From an uncultured Phycisphaerales bacterium (GTDB lineage: Bacteria; Planctomycetota; Phycisphaerae; Tepidisphaerales; Tepidisphaeraceae), in NCBI GenBank assembly GCA_963758525.1, contig CAVWVQ010000001.1:320001-384000 (forward strand): a stretch of 64,000 nucleotides of DNA, given 5' to 3'. Position 1 is the stretch's first letter. Each line of letters starts with the position of its first letter. Positions 7,791-20,137 of the stretch are shown here, in pieces. The translations under genes and the position numbers were made by a program. The notes under the pieces are model-generated. The model searched no databases. It saw only the letters and a list, made by a program, of their open reading frames with translations, and was not told the origin of the DNA.

Positions 7791-8907
7791 ATGATTCACG
7801 AGAACCTCTCGCAATCGATCGAAGACCTTTCATCCCGGATCATTGCCATCCGGGACTCTCTTTGACTTCCCCACCAAACTCGCTCGACGCAAAGCACTGG
7901 AAGACAAGATGGGGGATGCCGGGTTTTGGAATGACCCTGAGGGGGCGAAGTCCGTCGTCGCGGAGATGAAAACGATCAAGGGGGTCGTCGAGCCGGTGCA
8001 GGCGCTGCTGGAGGCGATCGACGACGTCCGTGCAATGTATCAGCTTGGCGAGGAAGCTGGGGATGCCGACACGCTGGCCGAGGCGGATCAAACGCTGGCA
8101 GCATTGGAGAAGCGCGGCCAGAAGGTGGAGCTGCAGTCGCTGCTCGACGGGAAAAACGATCCCCGCAATTGCTTCCTGCAAATCCATGCCGGCGCCGGCG
8201 GCACCGAGGCGCAGGACTGGGCGGAGATGCTGCTGCGGATGTACCTCTATTTCTTCGAGAATCGCGGGTGGGATGTCAGCGAAGTGGACCGGACCCTGGG
8301 GGAACAGGCCGGGATCAAGGACGTCGTGCTGCTCGTCAAAGGGGAATACGCCTACGGGTATTTGCGTGCAGAGGCAGGGGTTCACCGGCTGGTTCGTCCC
8401 AGCCCGTTTAATGCGCAGGGGAAACGGCAAACGAGTTTTGCGTCGGTCGACGTCGTCCCAGATTTCGAGGACGAGGGGGGCGATCTGGAGGTTCCCGAGG
8501 CGGACATGGAAATCGTTGCCTTCGTGCGCGCATCCGGCCCGGGCGGACAGAACGTGAACAAGGTCGCGTCGGCTGTGCGGATCACGCACATACCAACGGG
8601 GTTGCAGGTCACCTGCTCGGTCGAACGCAGCCAGCAGCAGAACAAGCGGCTGGCAATCGCCCTGCTCAGAGGCCGTCTGGAGCTTCTCGAACAGGCCAAG
8701 CGTGACGAAGAGTTGAAGAAGATGTATGGCGAAAAGGGCGCGATCGCCTGGGGAAATCAGATTCGCAGCTACGTATTGGATGATCGCCGGGTGAAGGATC
8801 ACCGGACGATGGTAGAGACGAGCAACGTCGAGAGCGTGCTGGATCGGGGGGAACTGGACGGCTTCATCGATGCCGAATTGCGGCGGCGTAAGAAGGAGAA
8901 GAAGTAA
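7791..8907 (+). CDS. prfB: Peptide chain release factor 2 with programmed +1 frameshift
   Basis: ATG 7791 reads 24 codons to CTT TGA C (7860-7866), then DFPTK in the +1 frame. SPF specificity motif, GGQ motif and WGNQIRSYV present. Confidence 0.96.
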
Positions 8908-9142
8908 GGGGAAGGCGCGAAGGCACGGAGGCACGAAGGCACGAAGGCACGGAGGCACGAAGGGAAGGAAGGGAGAGAGGGGCAAAACGGGGGGATCGGC
9001 TCCTCGGGGTACCGCAAACCGGGTGTTACGCATTTTCTACCGTGCCTGTGCGTCTCCCTTCCCTCTCCGTCTCCCATCCCCTTCCTCACCCTTCGTGCCT
9101 TCGTGCCTCCGTGCCTTCGTGCCTTTCCCACCCGTGCCTTCC
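8908..9142. repeat. Long palindromic element with tandem GGCACGAA/GGCACGGA arms
   Basis: Left arm about 8908-8982, inverted TTCGTGCC/TCCGTGCC arm about 9056-9142, directly after the prfB stop. Confidence 0.9.
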
Positions 9143-9373
9143 GCAGTCCCTTTCCCGACAAACACTTACCAATCATTCAAGCCATTCCTGTGTTCGGTCC
9201 GATAACTTTGTGGCTGGTTTCGCAGCTGACGGATGCCCGGCCTCCGATTGACCTGCCGACAAAACTTCATAGACTTTCGTCCGTTATCGGGCTGGGCAGC
9301 ATTGAAGCAGGTCAACGGAGTGGCGACTGTTTGCACGGCCGTTCCGCAGTGTTGCTTTTGAGCTGTAATAATT

Positions 9374-10253
9374 ATGATCGTTGATTGTCATACGCACATC
9401 TGGCAGTCCCCTGACCAACTGGGTCAGCTCGACTTGGGTAACTCGTCGCCTCCATCGGCGCGTCGGCCCCTGCGCGTTTCGGCGCATCGAACCGTTTGGC
9501 GCTCCGCCGTCCCCGCGGCCGACCCGGATTATCATTGGGCTCAGAGCGGTACCGTGGACAAATCAATTGTCCTGGGTTTCAAGAGCCGGTACCTTCGCGC
9601 GGAAATCCCCAATCGTTTCGTATCTGACTACGTGAATCGCTTTCCGCAGAAGTTAATCGGCTTTGCCGGGATCGATCCGACCGAACGCTCGGCAGTTGCC
9701 GAGGTGCAGACGGCCAAGGAAGATCTCCTGCTGCGCGGGCTGACCGTTTCTCCAGCGAACCAGGACTTTCATCCAACCGATACCCGGGCCATGGCGGTCT
9801 ATGCCGAAGCGGAGCGGCTGGGAATGCCGATCCTCATTCATCCCAGCGGCCAATTCACCGAACAGAGCAAGCTTGAATACGGCCGGCCCTATCTGCTGGA
9901 CGAGATCGCCCGCACGTTTCCGAAGCTGCGGATTGTCATCGCCCAACTCGGCCAGCCGTGGATCGACGAGACCATCTGCATGTTGGGAAAGCATCAGCAT
10001 GTTTATGCTGATATGAGCGGCCTGTTGATGCGTCCGTGGCAGGCGTATAACGCGCTGGTGCTGGTCCATCAGCATGGCGTAATCGACAAGCTCCTGTTCG
10101 GCAGCGACTTCCCATATACCAGCGCGACGGAGTGCATCGAATCGCTCTACAGCATCAACCAGTTCGCGCAGGGAACCAACCTCCCCCTGGTTCCGCGAGG
10201 CGCTTCGCGGCATCGTCGAGCGCGACACGCTGGGCCTGCTGGGTCTGGAGTAA
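9374..10253 (+). CDS. Amidohydrolase family protein (Amidohydro_2; frameshift near 10199)
   Basis: IVDCHTH, PILIH, VYADMSG, KLLFGSDFPY; the C-terminus EALRGIVERDTLGLLGLE* lies in a shifted frame. Confidence 0.88.
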
Positions 10254-10281
10254 ACCCCCGAGTTTTGACGAAAGGGTGCCC

Positions 10282-10905
10282 GTGAAACCGATTGCCAGGA
10301 AGATTCTCTCACTCTCGATCACGATCGCAGCCGCATCGCTTTCCACGGGGTGCGCGGGCCATGCGGGCGGCATCACGCTGACTTCCATGCGCACGCATGA
10401 GAAGTTCGACCAGGGATTTTCCGATGCCTACCTGAGCCATAATGCGAACGGGGATCTGGATGTCGTGCTGATCGACTCGGCGACTGCCGACGCGCTCGCC
10501 GGGCATCGGTCGAAATCGCCAATTCAGCAGATTCTTCACCTTCGCGTGCTTTGGCAGCCGGAGCGCGATCTGAAGGTAACCGACGCGGCAGCGTGCAACG
10601 CTTCGGTTCATTGGTATGTGATGGGCGGCAATCCCAAGGGAATGCTTGAATACACCGGCACCGCGTTTGTTTCGACCACGTCCTTCAGCGATCTGGTGCG
10701 CGTGCATGTGCAAAACGCACAGGTGCGTCCGCTGCCGACCTCGGCCGGCCTGCAGGATCCGGTCGGCCCGTCCAAGCTCGAAGGCGCTGTCTTCGCCCAC
10801 GAGGACGCGCGGGTCGTCAGCCAGTTACTGAACGAAGTGAACACCCCCTTGGCGTACGCCGCCGAGGCCGGACGCGCCGGTGTGCAAAACAGCATCGCAC
10901 GGTAG
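10282..10905 (+). CDS. Putative lipoprotein, hypothetical
   Basis: GTG start; hydrophobic leader ending LSTGC (lipobox-like); coding-like composition. Confidence 0.7.
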   Translation: MKPIARKILSLSITIAAASLSTGCAGHAGGITLTSMRTHEKFDQGFSDAYLSHNANGDLDVVLIDSATADALAGHRSKSPIQQILHLRVLWQPERDLKVTDAAACNASVHWYVMGGNPKGMLEYTGTAFVSTTSFSDLVRVHVQNAQVRPLPTSAGLQDPVGPSKLEGAVFAHEDARVVSQLLNEVNTPLAYAAEAGRAGVQNSIAR

Positions 10906-11055: not shown

Positions 11056-12381
11056 ATGACCGCGCCGTCGAATCAATCCACAGGCGAGACAAATGCTCAA
11101 TCGCCGTGCCTATTCAGCTCGCTGAGTCCGCCGCCTCGATTCCTGGTCCCCTGCCTCACGCACGCATTGCCAGGTTTGGCCGCCGACGTCGTCCGCGTGC
11201 GTCCGCCCGGCACGCAGGTCCTGGCGGGCGAACCGCTGGTCGAGCCGCATCCGGCATTGCGCTACACACCGCTCGCCCCCGCGCAGGGGACGATCATCGG
11301 AATGCAGGCGGCGCCGATTCTCCGTGGGTATGAGGTTCCCGCCGTTTTACTCCAGACCGCGCCGCGACCGCTCCCGCTGGCGGAGGATCCGCCTGCCGGG
11401 GATGTCGTCGCGCGCATGCGCCAGGCGAGCTTTTCCGAATGGATCGACCGCCTGCGGAGCAGTGCCCTCTGGACGGCCCGCTGGGCCTGCCCGGATTTGA
11501 TCGAGCAGCTCCATCGCTGCCTGACGCGCCCGGTCGACACCGTTATCTGCAGCGTGATCGATCTCGATATGGCCCTTCCCGTCCAGGCGATGATCGCGTC
11601 GACCTGGGCCGACGATCTGGCTGCCGGAATGCACGCGCTGGCGAGCCTCACCGGGGCGGGACGCGCCTGGATTGTTGTGCCGGAGAGTCTTCCGCAAGGC
11701 TGCTACGCCCGCCTGGAAAAGGCCATTGAGGGGACCGACCTCAAGCTGATACCCATCCAAAACCGCTATCCGACCGCCCACCCTTCCCTGCTGTTGCAGG
11801 GTTTGACCGGGCGGCTGGTTCGCTTCGGAAATCTGCCGGTCGAGCAGGGCATCCTGTTGCTCGACGCCGCCGCCGCTCGCAGCGCCGGGCGCCTCTTCCT
11901 CCGCAACGCTCCGACGCTCGAGCTTCCGATGGGAATCTACGATCAGAGCACGCGCCGCGCGCACTACGTGTTGGCGCCGATCGGCACGCCGTTGGAGTAT
12001 CTGCTGGAGCGGGCGGGCGTCGCAACAACGTTCTGCGTTCTCTCCGCCGGCACCCCGCTGCATCAGCAGGTGCTCTCGCGCGATTGCGTCGTGGGCGGAG
12101 CGAGCATGACGATCTACGCTTCGCCGCCGATCCGCGAGCTGAATCCAGAGCCATGCATCCGCTGCGGCTGGTGCATCGAAGCGTGCCCGGTTCACATTCA
12201 ACCTGCCGCACTCCTCGAAGCCGCACAGACGCACGATGCGCACATGGCCGACGCATACGGGCTTCCCGCCTGCATCGAATGCGGCATCTGCACGTATGTG
12301 TGCCCGTCCTATCTGCCGCTGCTGCATGGAATCCGGACGCTGAGAGCGGGATCGCACGCAGAAGCCCAGAGCCTGGAGTAA
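11056..12381 (+). CDS. RnfC-like protein with 2x[4Fe-4S] dicluster, divergent
   Basis: CIRCGWCIEACP and CIECGICTYVCPS; RYPTAHPSLLLQGLTG and APIGTPLEYLL align to RnfC; start codon uncertain. Confidence 0.8.
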   Translation: MTAPSNQSTGETNAQSPCLFSSLSPPPRFLVPCLTHALPGLAADVVRVRPPGTQVLAGEPLVEPHPALRYTPLAPAQGTIIGMQAAPILRGYEVPAVLLQTAPRPLPLAEDPPAGDVVARMRQASFSEWIDRLRSSALWTARWACPDLIEQLHRCLTRPVDTVICSVIDLDMALPVQAMIASTWADDLAAGMHALASLTGAGRAWIVVPESLPQGCYARLEKAIEGTDLKLIPIQNRYPTAHPSLLLQGLTGRLVRFGNLPVEQGILLLDAAAARSAGRLFLRNAPTLELPMGIYDQSTRRAHYVLAPIGTPLEYLLERAGVATTFCVLSAGTPLHQQVLSRDCVVGGASMTIYASPPIRELNPEPCIRCGWCIEACPVHIQPAALLEAAQTHDAHMADAYGLPACIECGICTYVCPSYLPLLHGIRTLRAGSHAEAQSLE

Positions 12382-12456
12382 GAAAATGGGGAGCAAAGAG
12401 TTGCAACCGGCGTTTGCGTCCCCGCCTTTCACACCGCACAATTCGCGGCGATCCCG

Positions 12457-13641
12457 ATGAATCGCTCCTTTGCCCTCCGCCCTGCTTCCGTGACCCCGCT
12501 CTCACACAGCGGCATCACCGTAGCCGGTTTTTACTCAATGCATCTGCTCGGCATCGCGCTCCCGCTGACCGCCGGCGTGCTCCTCTACGGCTGGAGAGCC
12601 TTGATCGTGATCGGCGGCGTGCTCGCTTCGACGCTGGCCGCGGTAGCCGTCTGGCGTCGAATCGGAACGCGCGGACCCCAATTGCGGTACTCGCACGCGG
12701 CGTGGCTTGCCACGCTGCTCGCTCTCATGCTCCCGGCGCACTTGGCGACGAGCGTTCCTGACTCTCACGGCGAAGTCCCGTGGCTGATCCTTCCCGCTGC
12801 CGGAATGAGCCTTGCCATCATCATGTGGTTCATCGGCGGCCTGGGCGCGGGCAGGATTCATCCCACCCTGGTCACGTTTCTTCTGCTGGCCGCTTTGTTT
12901 GGCGACATGCTCGCCCCCCGCTACGTGCTGCGCCGCGATCACCTCTTCACCGGCGATCTGCTCAAAGCCGCCGCGCCCGATCAGCGAATCGACCACGGCG
13001 ATTCCTGGATCACCCGCAAACCCGCCGGCGATCAGGACGCCGAGAGGGTCGAACCCGCCGCCACCGCCCTGATTCAATACACCACGGGCCGCGAGAGACC
13101 CGCACGCGGATGGCTTCCCGTGCAGGGACTTCTCCGCGACAGCATGCCTCCGCTGGAGGATCTCATCATCGGCGGACACCCCGGCCCCATCGGCATCAGC
13201 AGCCGGGTCACCGTCATCGTCGGCGGGCTTTTCCTCCTCTACCGCGGGCTCATCGACATTCGCATTCCCCTGATCATCTGGCTCATCGAATTCGCCGCGC
13301 TGCTGATCCTCCCCATCCCCAGCGTGATCGCCAAACACCCGCAGTGGCACTGGCTCGCCCTGCGCGACCCCAACGTTGGCGTCGCCACCGCCATCACTCT
13401 CGCCAACTACGAGATCATGGTCTCCCCCGTCTTATTCATGGCCTTCTTCATCGCCACGTCCCCGTCGATCCGTCCCATGACACGCGACGCGCGCACAGTC
13501 TACGCCGCCATCATCGGCCTGCTCTGCGCGTGCTCGCAGCTCTATGTATCCGTCGACTTCGGCCCCTACGTCGCCCTGCTGATCGCCAGTCTGTTCACCC
13601 CCGCGCTCGATTGGCTGTTCCGTCCGCGCCCGCTGATCTAA
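12457..13641 (+). CDS. RnfD/NqrB-family membrane protein, divergent
   Basis: YGWRAL, IGGLG, DLIIGGHPGPIG, GGLFLLYRGLIDIRIP, AFFIAT, LFTPALDWLFRPR; multiple transmembrane segments. Confidence 0.85.
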   Translation: MNRSFALRPASVTPLSHSGITVAGFYSMHLLGIALPLTAGVLLYGWRALIVIGGVLASTLAAVAVWRRIGTRGPQLRYSHAAWLATLLALMLPAHLATSVPDSHGEVPWLILPAAGMSLAIIMWFIGGLGAGRIHPTLVTFLLLAALFGDMLAPRYVLRRDHLFTGDLLKAAAPDQRIDHGDSWITRKPAGDQDAERVEPAATALIQYTTGRERPARGWLPVQGLLRDSMPPLEDLIIGGHPGPIGISSRVTVIVGGLFLLYRGLIDIRIPLIIWLIEFAALLILPIPSVIAKHPQWHWLALRDPNVGVATAITLANYEIMVSPVLFMAFFIATSPSIRPMTRDARTVYAAIIGLLCACSQLYVSVDFGPYVALLIASLFTPALDWLFRPRPLI

Positions 13642-13730: not shown

Positions 13731-13813
13731 GGCCTCTTGGCGGAATTGGCAGACGCGATGGATTCAAAATCCATTTCCCAAAAGGAGTATCGGTTCGACT
13801 CCGATAGAGGCCA
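13731..13813 (+). tRNA. tRNA-Leu (CAA)
   Basis: GGCCTCT/AGAGGCC acceptor stem, anticodon arm ATGGA-TTCAAAA-TCCAT, long variable arm, T-loop TTCGACT. Confidence 0.95.
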
Positions 13814-14860: not shown

Positions 14861-14883
14861 CACGGGTTGGAAACCCGTGGTAC
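14861..14883. repeat. Single REP-like palindrome CACGGGTTGGAAACCCGTGGTAC
   Basis: Short hairpin just upstream of coaX. Confidence 0.6.
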
Positions 14884-14894
14884 GTTGGCGGGGT

Positions 14895-15662
14895 ATGGAA
14901 ATTAATCTGTTGGTTTTGAATGTTGGGAACTCGCGCATTGCCTGCGGAACGTTCGTCGCGGGAGAATTGAGAGGAGTGACCCGGCACCGGATCGATGAAC
15001 GTGCTGCCTGGCAGAAAGCGATCGTTGACGCGTGGGCGAGCCTGGACGGACGCGATGCCGCCGTTGTCGCGGCCACGGTGAATCCGCCGTTGATCGAGGC
15101 GATTGAGCATGTCGTCGATCTGGCGATCGGACGCAACGTTGTATGGGTGGGAAAGAGCCTGGACCTGCCAATTCGAGTGTTGACGGACAAGCCTGCGGAG
15201 ACGGGAGTCGACCGCGTTCTCAATGTGGCAGCCGCTCACGAGCAAATCGAATCGGCATGCGTCGTGGTCGATGCCGGCAGCGCGGTGACGGTTGACTGCT
15301 GCAACGACGGCGGAGATTTCATTGGAGGCGCCATCCTGCCCGGCGCTGCGATGATGCTCGCGGCACTGCATGCACACACGGCAAAGCTTCCCGAAGTCAC
15401 GCTAGCGGTTCCGCAAGGCCCGGTCGGGAAAAACACCGAGCAGGCGATGCTTCATGGCGTATATCACGGAATACGCGGAGCGGTGAAAGAACTGGTCGAA
15501 ATCTACGCGACGGATCTGGGCCGCTGGCCGGAAGTCATCGCGACAGGCGGCGATGCGAAACTGCTGTTTGATGGATGGGAGCTGATTCACGCGATCGCGC
15601 CGGATCTCACGCTGTATGGCATCGCGCTGGCGTATACGAATCATCATTTGACGGATGAGTAG
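14895..15662 (+). CDS. coaX: Type III pantothenate kinase
   Basis: LNVGNSRI, TGVDR, VVDAGSAVTVD, FIGGAILPG, IATGGDA. Confidence 0.93.
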   Translation: MEINLLVLNVGNSRIACGTFVAGELRGVTRHRIDERAAWQKAIVDAWASLDGRDAAVVAATVNPPLIEAIEHVVDLAIGRNVVWVGKSLDLPIRVLTDKPAETGVDRVLNVAAAHEQIESACVVVDAGSAVTVDCCNDGGDFIGGAILPGAAMMLAALHAHTAKLPEVTLAVPQGPVGKNTEQAMLHGVYHGIRGAVKELVEIYATDLGRWPEVIATGGDAKLLFDGWELIHAIAPDLTLYGIALAYTNHHLTDE

Positions 15663-15736
15663 GGCATCATGTGGGGAACCTCTTCCGTCTCACTTCTAGA
15701 GGATTCTAGAAAGAGCCTGCACCGCGATGAATTCGC

Positions 15737-15804
15737 AATCACCCTCACCCCAGCCCTCTCCCGGAGTACGATTCGACAACCCTCATCGCAGGCCGGGCGA
15801 GGGG
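15737..15804. repeat. CCCTCACCC..CCCTCTCCCGGAGTAC repeat family copy with a short insertion
   Basis: AATCACCCTCACCCCAGCCCTCTCCCGGAGTAC closely matches 41462-41494. Confidence 0.8.
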
Positions 15805-15825
15805 GCCGGAAGCGCAACTGACGGA

Positions 15826-16866
15826 ATGGGCCAGAGAGCAACTGAAGCACGCGGCAACATCGTGTTGCCGCTGACGGGTGCAGGGATGGCGGCTGTCGCG
15901 GTCGTGCGAGTCAGCGGCGCGCTGTCGGCCGATTTTCTCCGAATCCACTTTTCCAAGCTTGCGCGGAGCGGACGCTGCGTTCACGGCGAGGTGCGCGACG
16001 AAGGTGCCGTGATCGATGACGCGGTGGTCGTCCTGTCGGAGGATCAGCAACAGGCTGATATCAATCTGCATGGGTCGTCGTGGACCGTTGCGCGGGTGAT
16101 CGAGCTGGCGAAGAAATTCGGTTTTCGCGCTGTCGACGATGCGGGCGAGCAGTTTCTGTTTGGCGCTGATGGGGACACGCCATTGGAACGGGAGGTGACG
16201 GCATGGCTGCCTCTGGCGCGGAGCGAGCTTGCGATGCGCATGCTGGCAGCTCAAGTTGACGCATGGAACACATTGCGTGAGACGATGCCCGAGCCGGAGC
16301 GATTGAAGGAAATCGGCGCCGACACGGCACTGTGGCGGATGCTGCATCCGCCTTGCCTGGCAATCGTGGGTCGGCCGAACGTTGGCAAATCGACTCTCGC
16401 AAATCGGCTATTCGGGCAGGAACGTTCGATCACCGCCCACCTGGCGGGGACCACGCGCGACTGGGTCGGCGACTACGCAAATATCGATGGGCTGCCGATC
16501 ATGCTGATCGATACGCCTGGGGTCCGGGAGACAGAGGATCGGATCGAAGCCGACGCGATCGACGCCTCGCGGGAGCAGATCGCCGGCGCCGATCTTGTGC
16601 TTTGGGTGGTGGATGCGGCGCAGGCCAATTTCGACGTTCCGCAATTCCCCAAAGCGATCCGGGTATTCAACAAATGTGATTTGAATGAAAACAACGCGAT
16701 CGGCGCGGCGGAGGGGTTGCGTGTTTCAGCAAAGACCGGCGCGGGAATCGATGGCCTGCGACAAGCGATCGTGGAGTTCTTCGGATGCGGGCAGATCGAC
16801 GTGAACGAGGCGCGATGGTGGACCCAGCGACAGAGAGAAGTGCTGGAGCGGGGATCGATTCCGTAA
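15826..16866 (+). CDS. MnmE/TrmE-like GTPase, shortened
   Basis: N-terminal AAVAVVRVSG, IDDAVV, INLHGS; G1 GRPNVGKS, G2 GTTRD, G3 DTPG, G4 NKCD, G5 VSAKTG. Confidence 0.85.
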   Translation: MGQRATEARGNIVLPLTGAGMAAVAVVRVSGALSADFLRIHFSKLARSGRCVHGEVRDEGAVIDDAVVVLSEDQQQADINLHGSSWTVARVIELAKKFGFRAVDDAGEQFLFGADGDTPLEREVTAWLPLARSELAMRMLAAQVDAWNTLRETMPEPERLKEIGADTALWRMLHPPCLAIVGRPNVGKSTLANRLFGQERSITAHLAGTTRDWVGDYANIDGLPIMLIDTPGVRETEDRIEADAIDASREQIAGADLVLWVVDAAQANFDVPQFPKAIRVFNKCDLNENNAIGAAEGLRVSAKTGAGIDGLRQAIVEFFGCGQIDVNEARWWTQRQREVLERGSIP

Positions 16867-16889
16867 GCAAGGCGTTTACACCTTCGGTC

Positions 16890-18963
16890 TCACAACCACC
16901 TAACGATATCGTGGTAGGTTACGAAGACGAAGACGCCGACCAGAAATGCGAGTCCGACATACTGCGCGATCGCCTGCGTGCGCGGCGACAGGGGCTTGCC
17001 TTGCAGCTTCTCCAGGATGAGGAAGGTGAACAGGCCGCCGTCCACGATCGGGATGGGGAGGAAGTTCACGACGGCCAGATTGGCGCTGATCATGGAAAGA
17101 AACCAGATCAGCCAATCGAACCCTTTGAACGCGAGCTTCTTGCCGGCGATGAAGATGCCGACGGGGCCCATCATGTTGGCGGGGCTGAGGTTTCCTTCGA
17201 ACATCCGCCGGAGCGTGAGATAAAACTGCAGGGTGAAATCGCGGGTTTCGGTGATGCCCCAACCAGCGGCCTGCCAGATGCTGTTGGCTTTGCGGATGGC
17301 ATTGCTCGGATCGGCCAGCGAAAGAAAGGTGACATAGCGCACCGCGTGAATGGCGGCTTCCTGAGCCGCGTCGATCACGATCTTGGTTTTCACATTCTCG
17401 CCGGAGGGGTTGATAAACTCGATCGGCACCGCAGTGTCTGGCGCGACATCCAGCAGGACCCGATGCACGTCGTACCAGGAGGAGACCTTGTGCCCGTCGA
17501 TTGAGGTGATCGTCGCCCCGCGCGGAATGGAAGCGCACCCGGCAGGAGTGTCCTTGAGCACCTGCGCGGCCACGGCGTGATTTTCGTCGTAGCCCAGCAC
17601 GATGCCCAGGCCGCGGCCCCCGCCCTCTAGTTTCATTCCTGTCTGCAGATCTTTCACATGAATGAGTTGATCGACGCCGTTGACCCGGCGAACGACGTCC
17701 ATCGACACCATTTGACGTTTGTCGCCGGCGTCTTTGAGGAAGCTGGTCAGCTCTTCGCGTGTCGGAGGAGCGGCCACAGCATCATTGTTGGCATAAAAAC
17801 CCGCCTGGATGACGTCGCCGGGGAGGAGCTTGCCGCGGGCAGGAGAATCCGGAAGCACGTTTTCGACCGCAGCGCGGGGAACCATGCCGATCAGGTGGAA
17901 CGAGCCAGCCGAAAACGGATCGGCAAAATGACCGTGAATCGTTTCCTGGCGGACAGCACCGTCGGCGGAAGTGACGGTCAGCACAATCGGCTTGCCGAAT
18001 GAGTTCTGGACGATCGAATCGAATTTTTCATAGTCATCCGGCGCGATCGGCCGCCCGTCCACCGCGGTGATGAGCTCGCCAGGCTTGACGGCAAGAGATT
18101 CGAGGAGCACGCGTTCACTGAGCTTTGGATCGTTCTCCACGACGGCGTCGGCGAGGCCGCGAAGATCGTGATAGGGTTCGATTCCCAGTGCCACGAACTC
18201 CTTCGGTTCGCCCTTGAATCGCTCGGGGGTGATTTCCAGATGAATATGCTTTCCGTCGCGAATCACGTCGATCGGGACGGTGACGTCCGGCTCCAACAGT
18301 GCTGCGTTGAGCCCGATCTTGGTGAAGTCGTACTGCTTTTTGCCGTCGAGCGTGTCGACGTAATCCCCAACTTGCAGCCCCGCGCTGCGCCGGGGAGTCG
18401 GGGAACAAGCCGCCCACCCTGGCCGGCGGAACGTGAAAGCCCATTCGGAAGACGATCATGAATCCGATGGCGGCAAGAATGATGTTCATGATCACGCCGG
18501 CCGAAACCACCGCCATGCGGGCGGGAATCGACTTGCGGTTGTAGGCGCGGGGATCGTCGGCCTGGGAGTTGGGATTCAGATCGTCCTGTCCGAGCATCTT
18601 CACGTAGCCGCCAAGAGGGATCCAATTCAGACGATATTCAGTGTCGCCCAACCCCAGAGCGGCCGCCGCCTGATCGATCTGCGCGTCGCTGAATCCATCG
18701 ACCGTTTCATGCAGTTGCAGCTCCGAGCTTTTCTGTGTTTCGAGATACGCTTCGGCGCGCTTGCGGTATTCGTTATTGGTGGTGCCGACACGGAAGCCGA
18801 TCCCCTTGCGCCAAGCGACAATGGCCTGGCCGAAACCGACGGCAAACTGTTCGACCTTGATCCCCACCCATTTGGCGGCGAGGAAATGGCCGAGCTCGTG
18901 GAAGAAAATGACAAAACCAAACCCCAGGATCAGCAGGGTGATCGTCAGCGCGTCGTTGGGCAT
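16890..18963 (-). CDS. rseP: RseP-like site-2 metalloprotease with several PDZ domains (frameshifts about 18300-18390)
   Basis: HELGH, IPLGGYVKM, NFLPIPIVDGG; follows dxr as in the conserved dxr-rseP arrangement. Confidence 0.9.
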
Positions 18964-18967
18964 GCGT

Positions 18968-20137
18968 TCAATTCCGAAGTTTCGACTCCGCCAGGAGTGC
19001 GGTCACATGTTGCCGGGCCCAGCGATCCGCCCCAAGGAGATCGTCCAAAGTCGGGTGCGTCTGGAGCCGATGTGCGTCAATTGTAAGCTCCACCGCCCGC
19101 GAAATCCCGCCGAACGAGATTTTCCCGCCGCAGAACGCCTCCACGGCGGCCTCTTTCGCGGCGTTCATCACGGCGCCCAGCGTTCCTCCCCTGGCGGCCA
19201 CGTCGTAGGCGATCCGCAGCGCGGGAAAACGATCGAAGTCGGGAGGCTCAAAATGGAGCTTGAAAGCCTGCTTCAGATCCAGCAGCGGAGTCGATCCGGC
19301 AAGCCGATGCGGATAGGTGAAAGCATACTGAATCGGCGTCCGCATATCGGGCGGCGAAAGCTGCGCCAGCACCGAACCATCCACGAACTCGACCATCGAA
19401 TGGACGATCGACTCGGGATGCACGACCACCTCGATCCGGTCCGGCGGTAGGTCGAACAGCCAGCAGGCTTCGATGATCTCCAATCCTTTGTTGAACATCG
19501 TGGCCGAGTCGATGGTGATCTTATCCCCCATGCGCCACGTCGGATGCCGCAGGGCGTCCTGAAGAGTGGCGTTCTGAATCTGCTCTCGCGTCGCGTTGCG
19601 GAATGGTCCGCCGCTGGCGGTGAGAATGACTCGCTGAATCTCATGTCCGCGTCCGCATTGCATTGCCTGGAAGACCGCGGAGTGTTCGGAATCCACCGGG
19701 AGAATCGTGATGCCCCGCCGTTTCGCTTCAGGAATCACCAGCGCTCCGGCGATGACCAGCGACTCCTTATTGGCCAGCGCCAACCGCTTGCCCGCGCCGA
19801 TCGCCGCGATCACCGCCGGCAACCCTGCCGCGCCGACCACGGCGGCCAGCACCGTATCGACGTCCGGCCGCTGCACGATCTGCGTCATGCCGTCGGCCCC
19901 GCGGTAAATCTCAACGCCCAGGTCGCGGATCTGCTGCAGCGTCGCCCGATCGCAATCGTCATCGGTGATCACGACCGCCGAAGGGCGATGACGCTGCACC
20001 TGCTTGAGCAGCTTGTCGGCGTTGCGATGAGCGCCCAGCGCGACAGCTTCGTACGGCCGACCGAGGTGTTCGATCACCTGCAGCGCGCTGCACCCGATGG
20101 ACCCCGTCGACCCGAGAATGGCGATGCGATGACTCAA
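18968..20137 (-). CDS. dxr: 1-deoxy-D-xylulose-5-phosphate reductoisomerase
   Basis: ILGSTGSIG, LALANKESL, LPVDSEH, LTASGGPF, HPTWRMGDKITIDSATM. Confidence 0.97.
   Translation of the reverse strand: MSHRIAILGSTGSIGCSALQVIEHLGRPYEAVALGAHRNADKLLKQVQRHRPSAVVITDDDCDRATLQQIRDLGVEIYRGADGMTQIVQRPDVDTVLAAVVGAAGLPAVIAAIGAGKRLALANKESLVIAGALVIPEAKRRGITILPVDSEHSAVFQAMQCGRGHEIQRVILTASGGPFRNATREQIQNATLQDALRHPTWRMGDKITIDSATMFNKGLEIIEACWLFDLPPDRIEVVVHPESIVHSMVEFVDGSVLAQLSPPDMRTPIQYAFTYPHRLAGSTPLLDLKQAFKLHFEPPDFDRFPALRIAYDVAARGGTLGAVMNAAKEAAVEAFCGGKISFGGISRAVELTIDAHRLQTHPTLDDLLGADRWARQHVTALLAESKLRN

Follow-up and report, generated by a model that had tools for sequence, protein, structure and literature searches.

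Locus and features of the gene pair

The 64,000-nucleotide stretch analysed here (the window; contig CAVWVQ010000001.1, positions 320,001 to 384,000) comes from an uncultured Phycisphaerales bacterium of the order Tepidisphaerales. It carries two genes that resemble those of subunits C and D of the Rnf complex. Both are intact open reading frames (ORFs) on the same strand with 75 nt between them, and their products are called C and D below (Table 1). A GGAG sits upstream of the ATG of the C gene, and a tRNA-Leu(CAA) gene at 13731-13813 lies 3' of the D gene. A scan for promoters and terminators gave matches at chance level only. The original prediction, made from the sequence of the window alone, described a C-like and a D-like gene followed by tRNA-Leu, without rnfA, rnfB, rnfE, or rnfG nearby, and proposed a repurposed membrane redox or sensing module. 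The arrangement of the genes is as described there.

Table 1. Coordinates of the two genes and of their motif positions in the window (AF2, AlphaFold2; FMN, flavin mononucleotide).
Feature	Position	Strand	Basis
RnfC-like soluble subunit, 441 aa	11056..12381	+	TIGR01945, AF2 model
A137-P146, in place of the GxGGAxFP FMN/NADH loop	11464..11493	+	alignment
S166-A173, in place of NGxECEPY	11551..11574	+	alignment
First CxxCxxCxxxCP, C367-P378, with family-typical Trp372	12154..12189	+	motif, family alignment
Second CxxCxxCxxxCP, C406-P417	12271..12306	+	motif, family alignment
RnfD-like membrane subunit, 394 aa	12457..13641	+	PF03116, TIGR01946, AF2 model
G132-P136; His135 at the place of the riboflavin-binding Asn of RnfD (N123 in Acetobacterium woodii)	12850..12864	+	alignment
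D194-P200; Glu199 at the place of the FMN-carrying Thr of RnfD	13036..13056	+	family alignment
A333-P336; Ser335 at the place of the riboflavin-binding Asp of RnfD (D249)	13453..13464	+	alignment

The RnfC-like protein

C scores 132.8 bits with the rnfC model TIGR01945, below the cut-off of 245.95. Its AF2 model, built from the family alignment, has a pLDDT of 91.4 and is best matched by RnfC (9eri_C; TM 0.82, 19% identity). The protein consists of a beta-sandwich, NuoF-like domains, and a C-terminal 2x[4Fe-4S] ferredoxin domain, and has no glycine loop. Both CxxCxxCxxxCP motifs are kept, as the original prediction had it. With RnfC of A. woodii and Azotobacter vinelandii as reference proteins, ALWTARWACP aligns on GIVGLGGA(T/I)FP and SVIDLDMA on NG(A/S)ECEPY; the two stretches had thus been assigned correctly to the GxGGAGFP and NGAECEPY regions.

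Motifs were counted across the family after nine frameshifted or truncated loci and ORFs shorter than 280 aa had been removed. The glycine loop is found in 0/82 family C proteins (14/17 comparison proteins) and the ECEP motif also in 0/82, and both cluster motifs are present in 81/82 and likewise in 118/120 of the nearest homologues in the database. The residues replacing the glycine loop are bulky, unrelated, and different from family to family. For A137-P146 the family consensus is G-V-W-A-D-R-x-x-S-P, with R142 invariant, and D169 is kept in at least 90% of the Tepidisphaerales-type C alignment. New conserved residues of the cleft in this order are R142, D147, Q151, D169, Y238, and D270. 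C proteins of families f4 and f2 (family labels of this analysis) retain ExEP/ExQP-like motifs in 7/8 and 12/16 cases, respectively.

The RnfD-like protein

D matches PF03116 with 108.9 bits and stays below the cut-off of the rnfD model TIGR01946 (44.7 bits; cut-off 207.05). PF03116 is its only domain, with no fused PF00175. The AF2 model from the family alignment (pLDDT 89.1) has RnfD (8ahx_D) as its best match, with a TM of 0.71. Two loops, at about residues 150-230 and 286-310, are enlarged, both on what is the extracytoplasmic side in RnfD, and L158, G166, W184, P286, and W299 are near-invariant residues of these loops across the family.

It is reported that in RnfD Thr153 carries FMN while Asn124 and Asp248 flank riboflavin (PMC9588780). 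The cofactor residues of A. woodii RnfD are given as T156, N123, and D249, and the N123A and D249A variants as inactive (bioRxiv 2024.06.21.599731). In D of the window, GRIHP aligns on the xxINP motif of solved RnfD subunits and ATSP follows their FF(M/I)ATD motif, in line with the original pairing of these stretches with NxFNP and ATDP. PAAT had been proposed as the altered flavinylation motif. The motif is indeed lost, but its proposed position was shifted by three to four residues: the family alignment sets P200 against the proline after the flavinylated Thr (D-x-x-T-x-A-T-P), which puts E199 at the Thr site, and T203 of PAAT is not conserved.

NxxNP occurs in 2/108 family D proteins versus 22/22 comparison proteins, and [ST]xA[ST]P, searched anywhere in the protein, in 4/108 versus 20/22. 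Families f4 and f2 have Gln at the Asn position (6/8 and 14/16) and Asp or Glu at the D249 position (8/8 and 16/16). D proteins of Tepidisphaerales have His at the Asn position (59/69), mostly Ala or Ser at the Asp position, and H29, E319, Q361, and Y363 as new conserved polar residues. Judged from the sequences, erosion of the cofactor motifs is graded: partial in f2 and f4, full in f1 and f5, and followed by D alone.

A sequencing error or pseudogene is ruled out by 120 intact homologues per gene that share the same changes. The motif losses are a family-wide trait and not decay. Compared with a genome of the same genus, D has a dN/dS of 0.29 and C one of 0.47 (one pair, rough method). C and D sequences share 37-60% identity inside the one order, on long branches.

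Orphan status in the genome and the order

The host genome is 90.9% complete and 6.1% contaminated. The search for rnf genes and apbE that the original prediction had suggested was run as a whole-genome profile search, and no match to PF02508 (rnfA/E), PF04205 (rnfG-type), or PF04060 (rnfB-type) was found. There is a single PF03116 gene, one apbE on another contig, and two further weak rnfC matches, one NuoF-like and one NuoI-like. The components that define Na+-NQR (NqrC-F, a cluster-free NqrA, and a flavinylated NqrB) are likewise not found in the host genome, although NqrF itself was not searched. The apbE gene (G000:C3:3438307-3439158; L002) stands in a genome without a PF04205 protein and with a Thr-less RnfD.

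The census of the order covers all 122 Tepidisphaerales genomes that are at least 80% complete, including the unpublished genome G056, which is not the sole basis of any claim. D is present in 115/122 and C in 105/122: both genes in 103, only D in 12, only C in 2, and neither in 5. RnfA/E (PF02508) is found in 0/122. An RnfG-like partner encoded in trans was considered and rejected; PF04205 occurs in just 15/122 genomes, in frames of 323-531 aa.

C and D as a unit

C is directly 5' of D in 38/40 loci outside Tepidisphaerales and in 48/77 Tepidisphaerales loci. Among the 150 best matches of a representative library, five are C-D fusions, i.e., single chains of 792-856 aa that join a loop-less, two-cluster C half to a D half. 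Four of them are closest to f4 and the fifth to f2, and two of the fusion clusters have 4 and 6 members. The model of the C-D complex scores 0.63 and the best of three controls 0.00. Contacts agree by at least 76% between runs, with a partner pLDDT of at least 75; the mark that the score passes is also passed by 116/157 solved pairs and 2/215 mismatched pairs. In the model, residues 365-427 of C contact residues 9-25, 129-131, 336-342, and 389-394 of D. C residues 365-371 (first cluster motif) contact D, and C residues 413-419 (second cluster motif) contact the N-terminal arm of D. The five fusions and the complex model support C-D as a single functional unit.

In D from genomes without a C match, the N-terminal docking arm is altered or unaligned (6/6) while the LRD-x-PPLED core is kept. 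The arm is retained in 5/6 comparison D rows, a small sample in which some rows are cut by contig ends.

Distribution across Phycisphaerae and origin

A broad D profile was searched against a class sample of 251 Phycisphaerae genomes. It finds D in f1 (40/40), f2 (38/38), f4 (10/10), f5 (27/29), f7 (4/12), f17 (2/2), and four single-genome families, almost always as one strong match per genome, and gives no match in f12 (0/13), f21 (0/8), f22 (0/8), or f10 (0/4). The matches in f13, f16, f8, and f14 are weak (E 1e-30 to 1e-40) and are interpreted as ordinary RnfD picked up by the profile. In the same sample, RnfA/E is found in 0/40 genomes of f1, 1/10 of f4, 1/29 of f5, 0/12 of f7, and 35/38 of f2. 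The pair therefore occurs in genomes that lack Rnf altogether as well as alongside complete operons. In many families of the class, C-D forms a paralogue of its own, mostly in one copy. A cultured carrier of both genes is Fontivita pretiosa B-254 (locus L089). When 251 genomes sampled across the phylum were searched, 18 matches fell outside the class; all 17 that were fetched have intact C motifs and NxxNP in D, so the degenerate form was not found outside Phycisphaerae among the genomes searched.

Trees were built from subsamples of the fetched loci (D: 85, 67, and 53 rows; C: 47 and 59 rows), all as unrooted quick searches with SH-aLRT support only. A branch with SH-aLRT 100 sets the degenerate proteins apart in the three D trees and in the 47-row C tree, and their subgroups mostly track the host families. 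Four further loop-less C proteins, from operons without rnfB, stand among the degenerate ones in the 59-row C tree, at an open fork; the 47-row tree omits these four and two long-branch rows. C-D-G-E-A operons with no rnfB match in the fetched stretch and a C subunit without the glycine loop are seen at L156, L163, L193, and L194, and in L193 and L194 C keeps the two cluster motifs. These operons resemble the B-less Nqr precursor proposed in PMC4014512. Another operon variant is seen in the planctomycete family f54, where L211, L213, L217, L218, L219, L222, and L224 are motif-intact E-A-B-C-D operons with no rnfG match in the fetched stretch.

With the broad D profile, RnfD of f3 and f11 scores much higher (mostly E 1e-61 to 1e-82) than the remaining ordinary RnfD proteins. 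These proteins are encoded in C-D-G modules with intact motifs. The operon is split: rnfA/E lies elsewhere in 5/5 genomes and rnfB elsewhere in 4/4 loci checked. In both D trees the intact RnfD of f3/f11 is the nearest intact group to degenerate D (support 96 and 92), and a shared stretch reads P-V-L-x-x-x-H-F-x-G-D in f3/f11 and V-L-R-R-D-H-L-F-T-G-D here. On the basis of these protein comparisons, the module likely descends from a split planctomycete rnf (rnfCDG + rnfEAB), and would have arisen from it by loss of G, E, A, and B. Duplication from a co-resident full-operon RnfD is rejected only marginally (p-AU 0.046).

Genomic neighbourhood

Neighbouring genes were counted in 146 loci, 30 of which have 1.5-kb flanks only; in 57 Tepidisphaerales loci the sequence 5' of D spans at least 2.6 kb. 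The upstream amidohydrolase and lipoprotein genes, which had been suggested as partners, recur in 1/146 loci (L058), and that suggestion fails. The downstream tRNA-Leu is found in one other locus. A sugar-phosphate isomerase-like gene (PF01261) is upstream in 46/77 Tepidisphaerales loci and is not so placed in other families; in the host genome it is on another contig. It reflects either gene-order inertia or a loose link. Also rejected as partners, each being family-restricted, are dxr 3' of D (12 loci), lpxA 5' of C (seven f4 loci), and queE on the 3' side (seven f2 loci). In eight loci the upstream gene is directly 5' of D, with no C between. A bacterial globin gene (PF01152), likewise family-restricted, is directly 5' of C in five f5 loci (L138-L142), where a link to oxygen or nitric oxide is possible. 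A link to menaquinone is unsupported, since the futalosine gene PF02621 is present in 18/35 f2 genomes though the pair is in 38/38 (the Men pathway was not searched); f12, where the pair is absent, has PF02621 in 12/12.

Several other features of the window were noted. The frame of the amidohydrolase ORF (9374-10285) seems to change near 10190: a plausible C-terminus is encoded out of frame with the rest, and its L058 relative aligns in two pieces; this is probably an assembly indel. An RseP-like protease extends over two overlapping frames at 16890-18963 (-), where relatives have one gene of about 690 aa, and another indel is likely. In 12 relatives, D is followed on its own strand by the block dxr-rseP-mnmE, with a gene that is presumably for pantothenate kinase. 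Here (14877-20137) this block is inverted and separated by the tRNA-Leu and an alpha/beta hydrolase gene, which suggests that the region near the tRNA has been rearranged. The ORF of release factor 2 (7843-8907) has a TTG start and no normal N-terminus, as the programmed frameshift known for prfB would lead one to expect. Between prfB and the amidohydrolase gene (8900-9200), short repeated, partly inverted elements are visible in the ORF translations.

Comparison with known systems

The pair shares with Rnf (RnfABCDGE; 9ERI, 8AHX, 7ZC6) the folds, the C-D order, and two 4Fe-4S motifs, and the docking predicted here, via N- and C-terminal loops of D, is like that described for A. woodii Rnf (bioRxiv 2024.06.21.599731). 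It differs from Rnf in lacking RnfA, RnfB, RnfE, and RnfG, the glycine loop, and the flavinylated Thr, in its changed riboflavin Asn and Asp, and in having enlarged outer D loops and natural C-D fusions. With the split-operon Rnf of f3/f11 it has in common the D signatures W-x-P-A-L-V-G-R, P-V-L-x-x-x-H-x-x-G-D, and an ATDM-like one, whereas that Rnf keeps all cofactor motifs and rnfG. Like NqrA-NqrB, it pairs an RnfC homologue without an FMN/NADH site with an RnfD homologue (TM 0.65 and 0.55-0.62). In Na+-NQR, however, the clusters are missing from NqrA, both flavins are retained in NqrB, and NqrC-F are described as required (PMC12174285).

The two-subunit 'Nqr/Rnf-like' complex of Meheust 2021 and Huang 2024 (PMC8238504, bioRxiv 2024.03.13.584918) also has, as described there, an RnfD-like subunit without the flavinylated Thr. 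Its D carries a fused PF00175 domain and has as its partner an RnfG-like flavoprotein near apbE, whereas the partner here is RnfC-like. The published definition does not cover the present case, in which D has PF03116 only, PF04205 is missing from the genome, and apbE is on another contig. The pair falls outside the definitions of Rnf, Nqr, and this complex. Listeria EetB was considered as an RnfD homologue and rejected; it is an ECF-S subunit according to PMC9973259. An atlas search returned RnfD-family clusters only. In the literature searched (mostly open-access, supplements aside), no description of an RnfC-RnfD pair without other Rnf parts was found. New here are the census across the order, the C-D fusions, the finding that erosion is graded, the relative with a split operon, and the lineages with D only.

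Interpretation and alternative explanations

With RnfA/E in 0/122 genomes and the NADH/FMN loop in 0/82 C proteins, the original idea of a stand-alone, repurposed module that is not an NADH:ferredoxin ion pump holds. Its 'redox or sensing' part is still conjecture. The two proteins, of RnfC and RnfD fold, are predicted by modelling to form a two-subunit membrane complex. There is an even chance, in our judgement, that the pair is a membrane-docked Fe-S one-electron relay or redox sensor, without NADH oxidation or ion pumping. In such a relay the ferredoxin domain of C would dock on the N-terminal arm of D, its 129-131 and 336-342 loops, and its C-terminus, a place predicted to be the mouth of the former riboflavin pocket. 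Electrons would enter or leave the outer cluster via the emptied flavin cleft, from a soluble partner, and might be exchanged with a cofactor loosely bound in the pocket of D, which would be lined by Gln and Asp/Glu in f2 and f4 and by His and Ala/Ser in Tepidisphaerales. NADH chemistry is unlikely because the glycine loop is gone, and the trans-membrane flavin chain is cut because there is no FMN on D and no RnfG. It is reported that sodium passes RnfA/E, not RnfD, in A. woodii Rnf (bioRxiv 2024.06.21.599731); with RnfA/E gone, this path is gone as well. The retained clusters are read as redox-active because NqrA, a cofactor-free and purely structural RnfC homologue, has lost its cysteines (PMC12174285, PMC4014512).

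Several points weigh against a relay or redox sensor of this kind. The riboflavin Asp is lost in 65/69 Tepidisphaerales D proteins and the D249A change abolishes A. woodii Rnf activity, so the pocket of D may be empty of redox cofactors. No donor or acceptor was found, as conservation across families does not extend to any third gene, and the pair does not track menaquinone (PF02621) genes. C has no match in 12/115 D-bearing Tepidisphaerales genomes, and no full C turned up when five D-only genomes were searched again at E 0.01, so that D can apparently be kept where clusters are missing. The complex mirrors solved Rnf, so the passing score may reflect memorisation. Finally, the C trees do not place split-operon Rnf firmly as the sister.

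The loss of C in some genomes also bears on a different division of labour, in which the work is done by D, as a channel, transporter, or signal transducer that uses its transporter-like fold and enlarged outer loops, and C is an Fe-S sensor of redox state or oxygen that gates it. D is kept more often than C (115 versus 105 of 122) and evolves more slowly, it stands without C in the eight loci mentioned above, its docking arm is altered where C is missing while the core stays, and it has gained conserved polar residues in Tepidisphaerales. Urea transporters come up in a fold search (best E 9.5e-4, TM 0.32), and kinship with a urea/ammonium-transporter-like fold is stated in PMC12174285. This likeness, however, is common to all RnfD/NqrB, RnfD was dry and had no ion path in the simulations reported in bioRxiv 2024.06.21.599731, no conserved substrate-related gene is nearby, and the genomes without C are drafts that are 80-95% complete. 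A D-centred function of this type, the leading alternative, is possible but rather improbable. The same doubtful standing is given to the broader proposal that C-D is an autonomous, ancient Rnf sub-module that does separate work as an Fe-S-gated sensor or transporter in the membrane and has been kept since early Phycisphaerae.

The conserved cleft residues of Tepidisphaerales C, together with the ExEP/ExQP-like motifs and the acid at the D249 position in f4 and f2, might instead mark a flavin enzyme with rebuilt sites, where the C cleft binds a flavin or small substrate and electrons run via the clusters to a flavin in D. Since the glycine loop is missing from every family C protein and its replacements differ between families, loss fits better than one new site, and such an enzyme is unlikely. 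The long branches, the low identity within the order, and the complete absence of the pair from f12, f21, and f22 would suit a non-catalytic relic, a scaffold like NqrA in which the clusters merely stabilise the fold. This is still less probable: all eight cysteines are kept, unlike in NqrA, and by the RnfA/E counts no complex is left to scaffold in f1, f4, and f5. Alternative C and D subunits serving rnfABEG encoded elsewhere are imaginable in f2, where RnfA/E accompanies the pair in nearly all genomes, and split rnf operons do occur in the class. For Tepidisphaerales this is refuted by the absence of RnfA/E from the order. The seven genomes fetched for both have their own separate RnfD in rnf-type operons, and the route from RnfG is cut without FMN on D, so that this explanation is very improbable overall.

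Significance

Databases label these proteins RnfC and RnfD. Metabolic reconstructions may therefore credit Tepidisphaerales with an ion-pumping Rnf, though RnfA/E is missing from the order. The pair is present in most genomes of the order and in further families with or without rnf operons, and it is fused in several lineages; it must thus serve a general role that has not been described. Intact split operon, partly eroded f2/f4, fully eroded f1/f5, and D alone form a natural deletion series of Rnf, which makes a role of RnfC and RnfD without flavins directly testable in a cultured strain.

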